DNA from: a virus
Taxonomy: Duplodnaviria > Heunggongvirae > Uroviricota > Caudoviricetes
Reading direction: 5' to 3' (one strand)
Length of the DNA: 4,350 bases
Virus record (IMG/VR): IMGVR_UViG_2778261594_000008
The notes under the pieces were generated by a model that saw only the letters and a list, made by a program, of their open reading frames with translations, searched no databases and had not been told where the DNA came from. Of the stretch, positions 1,593-3,767 are shown in pieces. Position numbers and translations under genes: made by a program. Numbering within the stretch: the first letter of the stretch is position 1; each line of letters opens with the position of its first letter.

Positions 1593-1781
1593 GTGTTAAG
1601 CACTGATCGGTTTATACGTGAAAAAGAATGCGAAAAGCTAACAGGCCTTAGCCGCTCATGCCGCTACCGCCTGGAAAAGGCCGGACAATTCCCATCACGT
1701 CGTAAACTTGGTGGGCGTTCTGTTGGCTGGTCTTTATCTGAGGTTTTGGCCTGGAAGGATAGCTGCAAGGCAGTTCACTAA
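1593..1781 (+). CDS. alpA: AlpA / Vis-family helix-turn-helix regulator (excisionase-like), 62 aa, GTG start
   Basis: Protein ...EKLTGLSRSCRYRLEKAGQFPSRRKLGGRSVGWSLSEVLAW matches the AlpA family pattern (TG.SR...Y.L...G.FP....LG.RSVGW...E...W). RBS AAGGGGG at 1581-1587, 5 nt before the GTG. Sits directly downstream of a P4-type integrase, as is typical. Confidence 0.8.
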   Translation: MLSTDRFIREKECEKLTGLSRSCRYRLEKAGQFPSRRKLGGRSVGWSLSEVLAWKDSCKAVH

Positions 1782-2024: not shown

Positions 2025-2228
2025 TCAGGCTGGTGGGCAATTACCTTGCTTGTTGGGGCCGTATTGTGCTGCCATTTTCATCCGTTCAGAACGTGAATAT
2101 TTTTTTAGAAACTCATCAAGGACAAAAGCGCATGGAGCGAATCTTTCTGATTCATGCTCGAGCGCCATATTTTCGTGCTCTCTGTTCGTTTTTTGCGATG
2201 GTGTATTGGTTGATTCTTTGTTGGTCAT
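2025..2228 (-). CDS. Small hypothetical protein P1 (67 aa), paralog of P2; unknown function
   Basis: ORF with ATG start. Shares with P2 the N-terminal MTN and a C-terminal motif R[FL][AV]P..F.L[DE][DE]F..KY.R. Preceded by the conserved 44-nt element and followed by the terminator. The overlapping plus-strand ORFs look like antisense artefacts. Confidence 0.6.
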   Translation of the reverse strand: MTNKESTNTPSQKTNREHENMALEHESERFAPCAFVLDEFLKKYSRSERMKMAAQYGPNKQGNCPPA

Positions 2229-2236
2229 TGTGTGTA

Positions 2237-2280
2237 CCTGTAAAGCAATGCGCCGGAGTTCCTCACGCCACGGCGCTGAT
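2237..2280 (-). repeat. Copy 1 of the conserved 44-nt intercistronic element (plus strand CCTGTAAAGCAATGCGCCGGAGTTCCTCACGCCACGGCGCTGAT)
   Basis: 41/44 identical to copy 2 at 2922-2965. As minus-strand RNA it has a 6-bp stem GCGCCG/CGGCGC with a 15-nt loop, then UUGCUUUACAGG leading into the P1 start. Confidence 0.85.
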
Positions 2281-2285
2281 GTTTT

Positions 2286-2465
2286 TTATTCTTTGGGTTC
2301 AATACCGCGTTGCTGTAATTCTTTTCGGATTATTCGTTTTATCCAAGCTGCTAAAGAGTCATCACCGTCTTGTTGTTGTGCTTTTTCCATCTTTTCCCGT
2401 AAGTCAGGATCTAAACGGAACTGGAAAGGAGGATTACCACGCCTTTCATTTTTGTGTGTTGACAC
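2286..2465 (-). CDS. Putative ribbon-helix-helix protein RHH-2 (59 aa, GTG start), paralog of RHH-1; may be degenerate
   Basis: Found by manual translation; not in the supplied ORF track. Sequence VSTHKNERRGNPPFQFRLDPDLREKMEKAQQQDGDDSLAAWIKRIIRKELQQRGIEPKE shows an RHH pattern (beta strand FQFRLDP, helix A, loop, helix B). Same length as RHH-1 and offset by exactly 685 bp. The only in-frame ATG (2390) would give a 34-aa fragment. The GTG overlaps the -35 of the opposing promoter. Confidence 0.4.
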   Translation of the reverse strand: MSTHKNERRGNPPFQFRLDPDLREKMEKAQQQDGDDSLAAWIKRIIRKELQQRGIEPKE

Positions 2466-2486
2466 GTCAATTACACTCCATATAAT
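2459..2486 (+). promoter_or_regulatory. Consensus sigma70-like promoter TTGACA-N16-TATAAT, rightward
   Basis: TTGACA at 2459-2464 and TATAAT at 2481-2486, both perfect hexamers with a 16-bp spacer. Homologous in position to the weaker rightward promoter of module 2 (TTGACG 3212-3217). Confidence 0.45.
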
Positions 2487-2494
2487 GTGTTTAT

Positions 2495-2506
2495 GTGTAT
2501 ATACAC
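2495..2506. promoter_or_regulatory. Perfect 12-bp palindrome GTGTATATACAC over the predicted transcription start; candidate operator
   Basis: Self-complementary. Flanked by GTGT (2487-2490) and ACACAC (2510-2515), giving an imperfect palindrome of about 30 bp. Half-site GTGT(A/T) resembles the module-2 operators. Confidence 0.4.
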
Positions 2507-2532
2507 ATTACACACAACTAGCACAAAAAACA

Positions 2533-2566
2533 ACGCCCCGCAGTGATGGGAACACATACGGGGCGT
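2533..2566 (+). other. GC-rich leader hairpin (module 1 copy): stem ACGCCCCG/CGGGGCGT, 18-nt loop, followed by TCTAACCAA
   Basis: Direct inverted repeat. Homologous to the 3281-3313 hairpin, including one compensatory pair change (C-G to A-T). No U-tract, so not a terminator. Confidence 0.5.
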
Positions 2567-2685
2567 CTAACCAAACCATTAATTGAGGTAACGATTATGG
2601 CTATAAAAGAGCATAGCTTACTCTTTATACACACACAAACGCCCCGGAAACGGAATAATCCGTTTCATAGTTCGGTTTTGTGCAC

Positions 2686-2913
2686 TCATCCTGGCGGTCG
2701 GTTTTTGCCGGATTTAAGCCGCCGTGGGTATTTATCGACAAAATCTTCAAGGGCAAATTTTTCTGGTGGCACTAAGCGCGGCGCTGGTGGTGGTATTTTT
2801 GTTCTGGTTAGTTCTTCCTCAAGTCTGGCGCAGGCTTCTGACTGCCTTTGCCGGATGATTTCATCATCTTGCGTTTGCGTGTCTTGTATTGGTGATAGTG
2901 TGTTGTTGGTCAT
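2686..2913 (-). CDS. Small hypothetical protein P2 (75 aa), paralog of P1; unknown function
   Basis: ORF with ATG start. AGGG RBS-like motif 8 nt upstream inside the end of the conserved element. Shares N-terminal MTN and the C-terminal F.LEDF.DKY.RR motif with P1. Confidence 0.65.
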   Translation of the reverse strand: MTNNTLSPIQDTQTQDDEIIRQRQSEACARLEEELTRTKIPPPAPRLVPPEKFALEDFVDKYPRRLKSGKNRPPG

Positions 2914-2921
2914 GATACTGC

Positions 2922-2965
2922 CCTGTAAAGCAATGCGCCGTAGTACCTCACACCACGGCGCTGAT
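2922..2965 (-). repeat. Copy 2 of the conserved 44-nt intercistronic element
   Basis: CCTGTAAAGCAATGCGCCGTAGTACCTCACACCACGGCGCTGAT. Differs from copy 1 at three positions, all in the predicted loop. Confidence 0.85.
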
Positions 2966-2970
2966 AGTGA

Positions 2971-3150
2971 TTATTCTGATTCTTTGGCCTTGCGACGCTG
3001 GCGGTATTCAACTTCCCGCTTTAATGCAGTTGTAACAAACTGCCCTGTACTTTCGCCGGGCATTTTTACCGCCTCAACATTGTTCATAACTTCATGTGGA
3101 ACCCTTGCCGCAACTGTTTGTGATTTTGCGTTTACTGCTTTTGTCGCCAT
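2971..3150 (-). CDS. Ribbon-helix-helix (Arc/MetJ/CopG-like) DNA-binding protein RHH-1, 59 aa
   Basis: MATKAVNAKSQTVAARVPHEVMNNVEAVKMPGESTGQFVTTALKREVEYRQRRKAKESE fits strand / helix A / G-x-S-T loop / helix B. ATG at 3150 has RBS GAGGGG 8 nt upstream. The track start at 3159 (GTG) would overlap that RBS, so the ATG is preferred. Confidence 0.7.
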   Translation of the reverse strand: MATKAVNAKSQTVAARVPHEVMNNVEAVKMPGESTGQFVTTALKREVEYRQRRKAKESE

Positions 3151-3198
3151 GTTGAGCACCCCTCATAAAAAACAAATGCAGTATGCAGGAAAAAAAAC

Positions 3199-3253
3199 AA
3201 GTGTTCAACACTTGACGTGTTTAACACCTCGATTTAAATTGGTGTTCAACACC
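3199..3253. promoter_or_regulatory. Divergent promoter region with three 11-bp palindromic operator-like sites GTGTT(C/T)AACAC
   Basis: Sites at 3201-3211, 3217-3227 and 3242-3252. Rightward promoter candidate TTGACG (3212-3217), 17-bp spacer, TAAATT (3235-3240). Leftward candidate TTGAAC (3208-3203 on minus), 17-bp spacer, CATACT (3185-3180). The operators overlap both. Confidence 0.5.
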
Positions 3254-3283
3254 TTATTTAGGCAAGGTGTAGAAACGACGAAA

Positions 3284-3310
3284 CCCCGCACTGTAGGAGC
3301 AGTAACGGGG
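3284..3310 (+). other. Leader hairpin (module 2 copy) in the 5' UTR of ORF A: CCCCG ... CGGGG with inner ACUG/CAGU stem, followed by TCTAACCAA
   Basis: Inverted repeat read directly; homologous to 2533-2566. Confidence 0.5.
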
Positions 3311-3342
3311 CTTCTAACCAACAACGTAAACGAGGAGCCGTT

Positions 3343-3537
3343 ATGGTTGCCGTAAATCATATACCACACCTTGTACACACACAAACGGCCTTTGTGTGGC
3401 GTTTTCTGGCACTGAGTGCCGGAGAATCTCAAATCATCCACGTAACCGCCTGGACGGAACGCGAAGCGCGTAACCTTTGCCCGTCCGGTTGTGTTGCTGT
3501 ATTTGCCGCCCGTATTCGCCAGGGGGTAGGCTTATGA
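3343..3537 (+). CDS. Small protein A (64 aa), possibly Icd-like (host cell division inhibitor-like) family
   Basis: RBS GAGGAG at 3332-3337, 5 nt before the ATG. Stop overlaps the start of ORF B (ATGA). The motif FVWRFLAL...WTEREAR...FAARIRQ recalls Icd-like small proteins of P4-like prophages; this is from memory and needs an HMM search. Confidence 0.6.
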   Translation: MVAVNHIPHLVHTQTAFVWRFLALSAGESQIIHVTAWTEREARNLCPSGCVAVFAARIRQGVGL

Positions 3538-3767
3538 GCCAGGAAATCACACTACAACAGGCAGCAGAACGCGCCCACCAAATCGAAGTTATTTGCGCAC
3601 TGGCAGAGGATTACCCTGGCATGATGACCGACAGCGAATCAGGGGCAATCATCGGCTTACTTAAACGCCTTAGCGGTGAGGTCTGCGTATTCCTGAGCGA
3701 TGAACAGGAAAGAAGAACGCTTATTTCTAACGAAAAAAAATGCGGAGGGGTACACCATGTGCAATAA
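3534..3767 (+). CDS. Small hypothetical protein B (77 aa), alpha-helical
   Basis: ATG at 3534 overlaps the ORF A stop (translational coupling), with AGGGGG upstream. The track's earlier ATG at 3477 lies inside ORF A and is less likely. Confidence 0.6.
   Translation: MSQEITLQQAAERAHQIEVICALAEDYPGMMTDSESGAIIGLLKRLSGEVCVFLSDEQERRTLISNEKKCGGVHHVQ

Follow-up and report, generated by a model that had tools for sequence, protein, structure and literature searches.

The 4,350-nt stretch of viral DNA analysed here as a whole (the window; IMG/VR record IMGVR_UViG_2778261594_000008, Caudoviricetes) carries on its minus strand two tandem modules, A and B, each consisting of a gene for an Arc-like repressor of the ribbon-helix-helix (RHH) type, a 57-nt intercistronic leader and a small gene, P1 or P2. 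The products of P1 and P2 are 25% identical and have a C-terminal motif alone in common, and the two genes start with the same 11 nucleotides (ATGACCAACAA, 11/11 identical). Why do two such genes begin alike? A sequence-only reading of the window had answered with a signal in RNA or DNA, conserved as a nucleotide string whatever the reading frame. Comparison of the two copies with each other and with their homologs makes it fairly probable, in our judgement, that the starts are alike because each follows a copy of one conserved 57-nt leader that heads P genes, and that this leader is a cis-acting module with a crossover role at the DNA level.

Similarity between the two gene starts

The resemblance between the copies extends over a 75-nt direct repeat (2218-2292 and 2903-2977, 81% identical) whose conservation is uneven. 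In gene sense, copies A and B agree fully in the last RHH codon and the stop codon (6/6), at 1/5 of the positions that follow, at 41/44 positions of a 44-nt element, at 1/8 positions of the spacer ahead of the ATG, at 11/11 positions of the ATG and the next 8 nt, and at 7/22 positions from +12 to +33 in an ungapped comparison. The continuous conservation across the start codon, contiguous with the 44-nt element, that had been proposed is thus broken by the spacer and again by the stretch from +12 to +33.

Both genes do contain ACCAATACA out of phase (phase 0 in P1, phase +2 in P2, offset 2 nt), as had been described, and the peptides STNTPSQ (P1) and SPIQDTQ (P2) had been quoted correctly. In composition-matched shuffles a shared 9-mer arose in 0.6-0.7% of cases at an offset of at most 3, in 2.2-2.5% at an offset of at most 15 and in 4.3-4.8% at any offset, so that the shared 9-mer is unusual by chance, yet it was picked post hoc. 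No frame shift is needed to explain it, since an in-frame register with a 12-nt gap, in which NTPSQ of P1 or NTPSP of its relatives of the L003 type (loci bear L numbers here) faces NTLSP of P2, gives 13-14/20 identities, as against 10/20 in the out-of-phase register. The string ACCAAYA is present twice inside each P gene.

Homologs with the same leader lack the frame-independent conservation that the sequence-only reading had set as its own test: codons 2-4 and the 9-mer vary among them, both synonymously (ACC/ACT/ACA; AAC/AAT) and non-synonymously. Codon 2 is ACC, ACT, ACA, AGC, AGT, AAC, AAT or GAT; codon 3 is AAC, AAT, GAT, GAC, AAA, GAA, AAG or TTA; and codon 4 is AAA, AAC, GAA, ACA, CAG, GGC, CAC, AAG or TCA. 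The N-termini found behind the leader begin with MT (MTNKEST, MTNNTLSP, MTDKELT, MTNEEST, MTNEELQ, MTKGTSS), MS (MSDTEST, MSKKYLS, MSKKHRS, MSKHRFS), MN (MNNQEL, MNNEEL, MNKSILS, MNKKYKS, MNEHTSS) or MD (MDLSPED, MDNTQHT), and some are chimeric, such as MTDK joined to ESTKTPSPTRK. The 9-mer region is altered in P1 relatives (ACC AAA ACA, ACC GAA AAA, ACC GAT ACA), and the 9-mer is absent from close P2 relatives whose proteins start with MTKGTSSPENGE or MNEHTSSSENGE.

The sole frame-independent feature of the coding part is its A/C-rich, G-poor composition, which is the usual mark of an unstructured initiation region. Codons 2-15 consist of 46% A, 27% C, 13% G and 14% T, compared with 20-24% G in the later open reading frame (ORF), and encode chiefly T, S, E, K, N and P. 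Because a low-complexity string of this kind yields polar residues in any frame, k-mers are easily and harmlessly shared out of phase. If P were not translated, such a start could also make a good Rho loading site. Constraint at the nucleotide level ends at the Shine-Dalgarno sequence, and the identity inside the genes themselves is no signal but goes back to ordinary homology within the family together with biased composition. The identical ATGACCAACAA is the family's commonest N-terminus (Met-Thr-Asn-Lys/Asn), derived from shared ancestry, to which recombination tracts reaching from the conserved leader into the first codons possibly add; the out-of-phase ACCAATACA is a by-product of the A/C-rich, low-complexity and probably disordered N-terminal coding segment.

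What stands of the proposed signal over the initiation region is its upstream part. The 44-nt element is RNA-like and is kept as a nucleotide string between flanks that otherwise cannot be aligned (RHH1 and RHH2 yield no alignment in BLASTP, and P1 and P2 are as distant as stated above); as it ends in the Shine-Dalgarno sequence of the P gene, it belongs to the translation initiation region, and the start codon and the first 12 codons lie outside it. The original observation was in this way confirmed in part and its interpretation supported in part. As no frame-independent signal crosses the start codon, no new kind of initiation signal is implied.

The leader hairpin and its association with P genes

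From 5′ to 3′, the upstream stop codon is followed by 9 nt, a hairpin in gene sense, a 10-nt U-rich single-stranded tail, an AGG Shine-Dalgarno sequence, an 8-nt spacer and the AUG. The hairpin has a GC-rich lower stem, reaches at most 11 bp overall and ends in a UGAGG pentaloop, and the spacer is variable in sequence and fixed in length. In the window, hairpin B has an 11-bp stem with two G-U pairs (about -17.8 kcal/mol); the lower 6 bp of hairpin A are perfect, with upper-stem mismatches at pairs 7-21, 10-18 and 11-17.

Evidence that this hairpin forms in RNA came from an ungapped alignment of 45 distinct 55-nt versions of the leader, in which the 11-pair stem was tested. The stem was paired in 87.9% of cells, compared with 21-55% in slid registers, and changes on both sides occurred at 6/11 pairs, a value matched by 0/500 shuffles. 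In the divergent copies, which differ at 9-12/44 element positions, the double changes were G-C to U-A at pairs 1-27 and 2-26, C-G to U-A at 5-23, G-C to A-U at 9-19 and U-A to C-G at 10-18. There were 78 G-U cells against 17 A-C cells, and pairing dropped to 75.6% when the antisense strand was considered. The excess of G-U over A-C and the better pairing in gene sense favour a structure in mRNA over one in duplex DNA or in an antisense transcript; the covarying stem and its gene-sense G-U pairs suggest that the element acts like a signal at the RNA level. The lower stem had, in sequence context, a median predicted probability of 0.96, and hairpin energies ranged from -6 to -19.4 kcal/mol (median -13.4). 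The least variable columns of the leader were the UGAGG loop and the AGG Shine-Dalgarno sequence and the most variable ones the upper stem: minor alleles per column, calculated from the counts, numbered about 1.2 (loop), 1.3 (Shine-Dalgarno sequence), 2.75 (lower stem), 3.6 (tail) and 8.6 (upper stem). The G of column 44 was invariant and AGG near-invariant.

The position of the element relative to its neighbours is strictly kept. A degenerate-pattern scan of IMG/VR returned 120 stretches with 122 usable instances, and in 122/122 the ATG followed CAGCGC at a distance of exactly 50 nt; wherever an RHH-type gene lay upstream, its stop codon fell in one and the same column. These two constants fix the intercistronic region at 57 nt. 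The element was found upstream of 30/30 informative P2-family loci retrieved by protein similarity alone, and also ahead of P relatives with other N-termini. Where P genes form arrays, each has its own leader copy at a spacing of 243-285 nt, whatever gene lies upstream (three P genes 243 and 285 nt apart in L168, two each in L005 and L167). One leader copy per locus was seen in 156 loci, two in 14 and three in 1. Downstream of K-12 ylcI, a founding member of the upstream gene family, the element was not present. A leader ahead of every P gene found and none after K-12 ylcI make it a leader of P-family genes and not a feature of RHH genes.

In these searches the leader is known only from Escherichia and Shigella. 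It occurs at 2768 places in 1687/5426 complete E. coli genomes (about 31%). Distant blastn searches gave no match for copy A in a phage collection (INPHARED) and eight plasmid records for copy B, all from Escherichia; of the nine matches of the DNA pattern among GTDB species representatives, that in Shigella flexneri alone is real and the others are due to chance. A protein-pattern scan of the same representatives found no P relative, and among 5.8 billion protein clusters both P subfamilies had homologs only in E. coli. A cmscan of the entire window against Rfam 15 at E<=1 gave no match at 2229-2285 or 2914-2970, with two sub-threshold matches elsewhere (BSnc120 at 1369-1447 and ST7-OT3_4 at 3505-3572). 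A literature search with the element sequence as a string gave no match, and literature searches on YlcI/YnfO returned nothing relevant.

The sequences around the leader are mosaic. Clustering by sequence gave 11 groups of upstream gene ends and 7 of downstream genes, which reassort with each other: a single upstream cluster occurred with 6 different downstream clusters, and 9 upstream clusters occurred with the commonest P1-like cluster (D0). Single-nucleotide polymorphisms (SNPs) in hairpin columns 14, 21 and 25 appeared in every combination ahead of the same P2 gene, and the 8-nt spacer moved with the downstream gene. Free assortment of SNPs within the hairpin and a spacer tied to the downstream gene place the crossovers in the hairpin and tail, and sometimes in the first codons. 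The two modules of the window lie 685 nt apart; this spacing was seen in 5 scanned loci, the window included, and fits unequal recombination between conserved islands. Being the sole homologous stretch that the unrelated flanks have between them, the leader is also the crossover point at which repressor genes and P genes are reassorted, giving tandem modules such as those of the window.

In modules of the YlcI/YnfO type (for example at 2940-2990), the conserved block reaches about 33 nt farther upstream into the RHH 3′ end. This extension, CAGCG(C/T)CG(C/T)AAGGCCAAAGAATCAGAATAA, encodes QRRKAKESE* and starts with CAGCGCCG, the octamer that also opens the leader hairpin; the upstream copy of CAGCGCCG could in principle compete for the hairpin 3′ arm CGGCGC.

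Possible roles of the leader

In the reading that we favour, the leader would be a portable cis-acting module for translation and stability. Its hairpin begins 10 nt after the RHH stop codon, that is, just outside the footprint of a terminating ribosome, and would insulate the P ribosome-binding site from any upstream gene and cap the upstream RNA, while the U-rich tail and the weak Shine-Dalgarno sequence would form the initiation site. The Shine-Dalgarno-like UGAGG loop would be contacted by a trans factor; since the 16S anti-Shine-Dalgarno sequence is complementary to GAGG(U) in the loop, a first guess for this partner is the 30S subunit, with the loop as a standby or docking site. A search for a trans complement of the hairpin apex in the 16-kb satellite locus scored only the trivial antisense strand.

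Several points weigh against this reading, every functional step of which we infer. Some 31 nt separate the loop GAGG from the AUG, and a standby role for this loop is putative, a first guess. The upper stem is imperfect: pairs 7-21, 10-18 and 11-17 fail in 16, 11 and 13 of the 45 variants, among them window copy A and the common L004 type with its 3x3 internal loop. Because the sequences are close relatives that recombine, the covariation counts come from a few divergent copies and do not represent independent events; in the most divergent of these, about 3 loop changes were seen against an estimated 7 or so expected, a modest depletion. Two hairpin copies persist behind RHH genes that lack a downstream P gene (L043 and L166), and on this evidence the hairpin could equally be a 3′ element of the upstream gene. 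The confinement of the family to so narrow a group of hosts also counts against it.

The original proposal, a single RNA or DNA signal running from the 44-nt element through the start codon to about the twelfth codon independently of frame, is very unlikely. The perfect identity of the ATG and the next 8 nt speaks for it, as does the 9-mer common to both genes out of phase (0.6-4.8% by chance), and across 10 N-terminal classes the mean pairwise identity of codons 2-9 falls from 0.52 (codons 2-3) to 0.39, somewhat above the 0.3 baseline reached by codon 10, with third codon positions no more variable than the others. The same comparison gives 0.78 for the element (0.96 for its loop) and drops to 0.43 in the spacer, the segment that is identical at one position in eight in the window; homologs that have kept the leader differ freely in codons 2-4 and in the 9-mer, the in-frame alignment accounts for the similarity at least equally well, and the leftover similarity is explained by composition and by shared or recombinant N-termini. 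An explanation at the DNA level alone, in which the leader is a recombination linker without RNA function, homogenised by homologous recombination or gene conversion, draws on the extensive reassortment of clusters, the free assortment of hairpin SNPs, the chimeric N-termini, the narrow and recent taxonomic range and the tandem modules at the recurrent 685-nt spacing. It is unlikely as it stands, because divergent copies keep the stem through double changes at five pairs (listed above), the excess of G-U over A-C cells has no meaning in duplex DNA, the least variable columns are those of the loop and the Shine-Dalgarno sequence, and the 57 nt are free of indels in 122 instances. It has to be said that the linker and the favoured cis-acting module are not mutually exclusive.

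That a leaky terminator of the intrinsic kind, or an attenuator, sits between the repressor gene and P and holds P below the level of RHH is distinctly unlikely. A terminator-like scan flagged hairpin B followed by ATTGCTTTAC, and the hairpin is GC-rich (with the median energy given above) and begins shortly after the stop codon; of the hallmarks of intrinsic terminators the leader has this GC-rich stem-loop and lacks an uninterrupted U-tract and a positive discriminant score. With an approximate score of the d'Aubenton-Carafa type, 0/45 variants exceeded zero (median -42.6), and T-tract scores were 0.19 to 2.1 (median 1.45). The tail (AUUGCUUUAC) is interrupted by G and C and is not U-rich in some variants (UCCGCUGUAC, AAUGCAUUAC), the same hairpin stands ahead of internal genes in P arrays, and a conserved loop is not expected of a terminator; an efficient intrinsic terminator is unlikely. 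A terminator acting on the plus strand was rejected, since the stem pairs less well there and the U-rich flank occurs with RHH1-type ends only. Translational coupling through a 7-codon upstream ORF (UUG-CUU-UAC-AGG-NNN-NNN-NNA-UGA), starting in the tail, with a stop codon that overlaps the P AUG (AUGA) and with the loop GAGG as its Shine-Dalgarno sequence, is very unlikely. UUG or AUG occupies columns 33-35 in 43/50 unique variants (AUG in two divergent copies), the overlapping UGA is present in 38/50, an A follows the ATG in 46/49, and a fixed spacer length would keep the frame. The start is missing, however, in 7/50 (UCG, CCG, UUA, UUU), including the common L003 type, and an earlier in-frame stop occurs in 4; GAGG lies 12 nt from the UUG with the bases between them paired in the stem, and the spacing from Shine-Dalgarno sequence to AUG explains the fixed spacer length equally well.

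A more far-reaching possibility, which we regard as rather unlikely, is that the hairpin, with its UGAGG loop as a Shine-Dalgarno mimic, would be read by a specific trans factor of the host, the helper phage or the satellite, and would thereby switch on hypervariable small satellite proteins in concert, the leader and P cassette being shuffled, duplicated and diversified beside an Arc-like repressor in an arms-race locus. Such a switch would liken the locus to diversifying anti-defence or helper-sensing genes.

Altogether, the leader is an undescribed RNA-level cis-acting leader, or intercistronic hairpin, of narrow host range that ends at a ribosome-binding site. This unannotated structure marks every copy of a variable small-gene family between alpA and the Icd-like and replication genes of phage-inducible chromosomal islands of the capsid-forming kind (cf-PICIs), and its covariance model (R1) offers a search handle for P genes, which PGAP often misses or covers with long antisense "Icd-like" ORFs. 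A defined crossover point at the leader explains the mosaic and tandem-module structure of the region. The leader is also a small, mutable RNA element for studying how satellites balance the amount of repressor against that of its partner protein.

The surrounding satellite and comparison with known systems

The whole window makes up the left arm of a cf-PICI-type phage satellite from E. coli. A RefSeq locus 96% identical to it (L001, strain RM10466) carries an integrase gene, a helix-turn-helix (AlpA) gene and four small minus-strand genes, followed by genes for an Icd-like protein, DUF4222, a DUF927 primase, a single-stranded DNA-binding protein (SSB), a major capsid protein, a head decoration protein and a small terminase, and this gene set matches capsid-forming PICIs. 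The criteria used were int, alpA, a primase/replication module, own capsid and small terminase genes, and no tail genes; the L001 locus ends at the terminase gene, and the last criterion concerns DNA beyond the region read. In cf-PICIs a variable gene of unknown function has been described downstream of alpA (bioRxiv 10.1101/2025.02.11.637232), and this gene probably sits in the alpA-to-Icd-like segment studied here. The features of the window are collected in Table 1.

Table 1. Features of the two modules and their surroundings in the window
Feature	Position	Strand	Evidence or remark
AlpA	1593-1781		Pfam Phage_AlpA, E=5e-18
Module A	RHH1 2286-2465 then P1 2025-2228	minus	
RHH1, 59 aa, Arc-like repressor of the ribbon-helix-helix type, lying upstream in module A	2286-2465	minus	phrog_228 Arc-like repressor, E=1.5e-6
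Leader A, 57-nt intercistronic region from RHH1 stop to P1 ATG (5 nt + 44-nt element + 8-nt spacer)	2229-2285	minus	covariance-model match 2226-2280, 79.2 bits
Hairpin A, GCGCCGUGGCG-UGAGG-AACUCCGGCGC, loop at 2261-2265	2250-2276	minus	fold; pair counts on 45 variants
Tail and Shine-Dalgarno sequence A, AUUGCUUUACAGG, AGG at 2237-2239, 8 nt ahead of ATG	2237-2249	minus	13/13 identical to copy B
P1, 67 aa, P-family small protein (phrog_21027)	2025-2228	minus	ATGACCAACAA at 2218-2228, ACCAATACA at 2202-2210
Module B	RHH2 2971-3150 then P2 2686-2913	minus	
RHH2, YlcI/YnfO-family ribbon-helix-helix protein, upstream gene of module B	2971-3150	minus	NF041551, E=1.6e-16; phrog_949; RefSeq annotation of L001
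Leader B, 57-nt intercistronic region from RHH2 stop to P2 ATG	2914-2970	minus	covariance-model match 2911-2965, 81.9 bits
Hairpin B, GCGCCGUGGUG-UGAGG-UACUACGGCGC, loop at 2946-2950	2935-2961	minus	fold
Tail and Shine-Dalgarno sequence B, AUUGCUUUACAGG, AGG at 2922-2924	2922-2934	minus	identity to copy A
P2, 75 aa, P-family small protein	2686-2913	minus	ATGACCAACAA at 2903-2913, ACCAATACA at 2885-2893

RHH1 also gives a weak YlcI_YnfO_N match. The start of RHH2 is likely the ATG at 3150, 8 nt after GAGGGG, the alternative in the ORF list being a GTG at 3159. As judged from their sequences, the P proteins appear to be a mosaic, diversifying and fast-evolving family of small proteins confined to E. 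coli satellites: alignments show the first 17 or so codons and middle segments swapped between otherwise identical members, and the shared C-terminal motif reads F-A-L-E-D-F-(V/L)-x-K-Y-P-R-R-L-K-x-x-K-N-R-P-P-G. The AlphaFold model of P2 has one long helix (8-38) and a short one (56-61), with low confidence at the N-terminus (a mean pLDDT of 56 for residues 1-10), and offers no fold suited to a structure search. Searches of P1 and P2 against Pfam, NCBIfam and PADLOC gave nothing meaningful; Cas8 matches of 17.6 bits were rejected as far below the cut-off.

Other signals were observed around the modules. Between int and alpA there are direct repeats of the type ACAA(C/T)GTG(A/C)AACAA (1263-1303 and 1513-1533), which may be binding sites of Int or AlpA. 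A strong bidirectional terminator-like hairpin lies between alpA and the P1 end (1926-1960; GGCGGCTCC...GGGGCCGC then TTTTTTTAT on the minus strand, about -26 kcal/mol in context). On the plus strand, a perfect sigma-70 consensus promoter (TTGACA-16-TATAAT, 12/12, 2459-2486) overlaps the RHH1 start codon and is directed at the Icd-like leader of module A; its counterpart in module B is TTGACG-17-TAAATT at 3212-3240. Neither a promoter scan nor inspection by eye found an antisense promoter inside the P 5′ ends. The divergent promoter regions hold different palindromic operator-like repeats, three copies of GTGTTnAACAC in module B (3198-3253) and TGTGTATATACACA in module A (about 2488-2510), a difference that fits two repressors of different specificity.

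Both modules share a second conserved island on the plus strand, a hairpin (A/G)CCCCG...CGGGGC (2530-2580 and 3285-3325) followed by TCTAACCA(A/C)CAACG, 20-30 nt upstream of the Icd-like start. Across loci, its outer stem covaries (CCCCG/CGGGG, CCCGG/CCGGG, CCCG/CGGG) and its apical loop is hypervariable. Two long plus-strand ORFs (250 and 270 aa; 1834-2586 and 2543-3355) run antisense through each entire module, leaders and promoters included, and share one frame across the leader element (CKAMRRS.S.HGAD). The second begins upstream of an Icd-like N-terminal segment and includes it in the same frame (starting at the ATG at 2597 with MAIKEHSLLFIHTQT; compare MVAVNHIPHLVHTQT at 3343). In other genomes PGAP annotates the equivalents of these ORFs as "Icd-like" proteins that are long (502 aa in L167) or pseudo (CB9615). 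These ORFs are Cys/Ser-rich and junk-like and probably do not code, which leaves about 800 nt of open antisense frame unexplained. Plus-strand coding was rejected as the source of the element's conservation, as 1/3 polymorphic hairpin columns is synonymous in the shared antisense frame.

Several known motifs were compared with the leader. The invariant core of the RfaH ops element (GGCGGTAG) is matched by the window copies (CGCCGTGG) at 5/8 positions by eye; the rare L005 variant reads GCGGTAGCGT, but at the core positions C stands at position 4 in 41/45 variants and G at position 7 in 38/45, and the ops resemblance was rejected for want of the defining motif. Nut-type sites of lambda or rrn combine a boxA, CGCUCUU(U)A or UGCUCUUUAACAA, with a boxB of a 5-bp stem and a GNRA-like pentaloop, whereas the leader tail (UUGCUUUAC; variants UCGUUUUAC, UGCUAUGCA, AUGCAUUAC) needs two deletions to give a boxA and the loop UGAGG stands on an 11-bp stem; this resemblance too was rejected. 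For CsrA/RsmA, a GGA in the hairpin loop and another overlapping the Shine-Dalgarno sequence were looked for: of the 45 variants, 15 have A, 27 have U and 3 have C at column 21, after the loop GG, and 12 have A at column 45, after AGG, so that the GGA motif is not maintained. Integron attC-type sites are imperfect inverted repeats between RYYYAAC and GTTRRRY core sites, are recognised in the form of folded DNA and occur in cassette arrays. Such a site was rejected, the 57 nt having neither core site and the G-U over A-C asymmetry pointing to RNA; the element is locked in phase with the Shine-Dalgarno sequence and the ATG, and leader-plus-P arrays do exist.

The Icd-side hairpin is placed like c4 upstream of icd in phages P1/P7 and also recalls the P4 CI RNA; the Rfam C4 antisense RNA (RF01695) gave no match to the window at E<=1, and the P-gene leader is on the opposite strand and has no complementarity to the region of this hairpin. 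Conserved boundary or linker sequences are reportedly present at the module junctions of mosaic lambdoid phages, and the leader resembles them as a short conserved block between unrelated genes at which modules are reassorted by homologous recombination; it differs from them in its RNA-type covariation, its G-U asymmetry and its ribosome-binding site, and is no merely neutral crossover site. In standby and split ribosome-binding sites, such as the tisB standby site and the T4 gene 38 hairpin, the standby region is single-stranded or a hairpin brings a distant Shine-Dalgarno sequence closer. The leader is likewise a structured element directly 5′ of a weak Shine-Dalgarno sequence and could hold or position a 30S subunit, but its candidate Shine-Dalgarno mimic sits in a loop 31 nt upstream of the AUG. 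Stabiliser hairpins of bacterial polycistronic mRNAs include the ompA 5′ hairpin, the malE-malF REP (repetitive extragenic palindromic) hairpins and the inter-gene hairpins of the phage T7 early region. As in these, a stable gene-sense hairpin stands between cistrons or upstream of a ribosome-binding site, is repeated before successive genes and is followed by an AU-rich single strand. Unlike them, the leader has a loop, UGAGG, that is as conserved as the Shine-Dalgarno sequence, a degree of conservation that simple stabilisers can do without, and its stem, which does not exceed 11 bp, falls short of a classical RNase III site.

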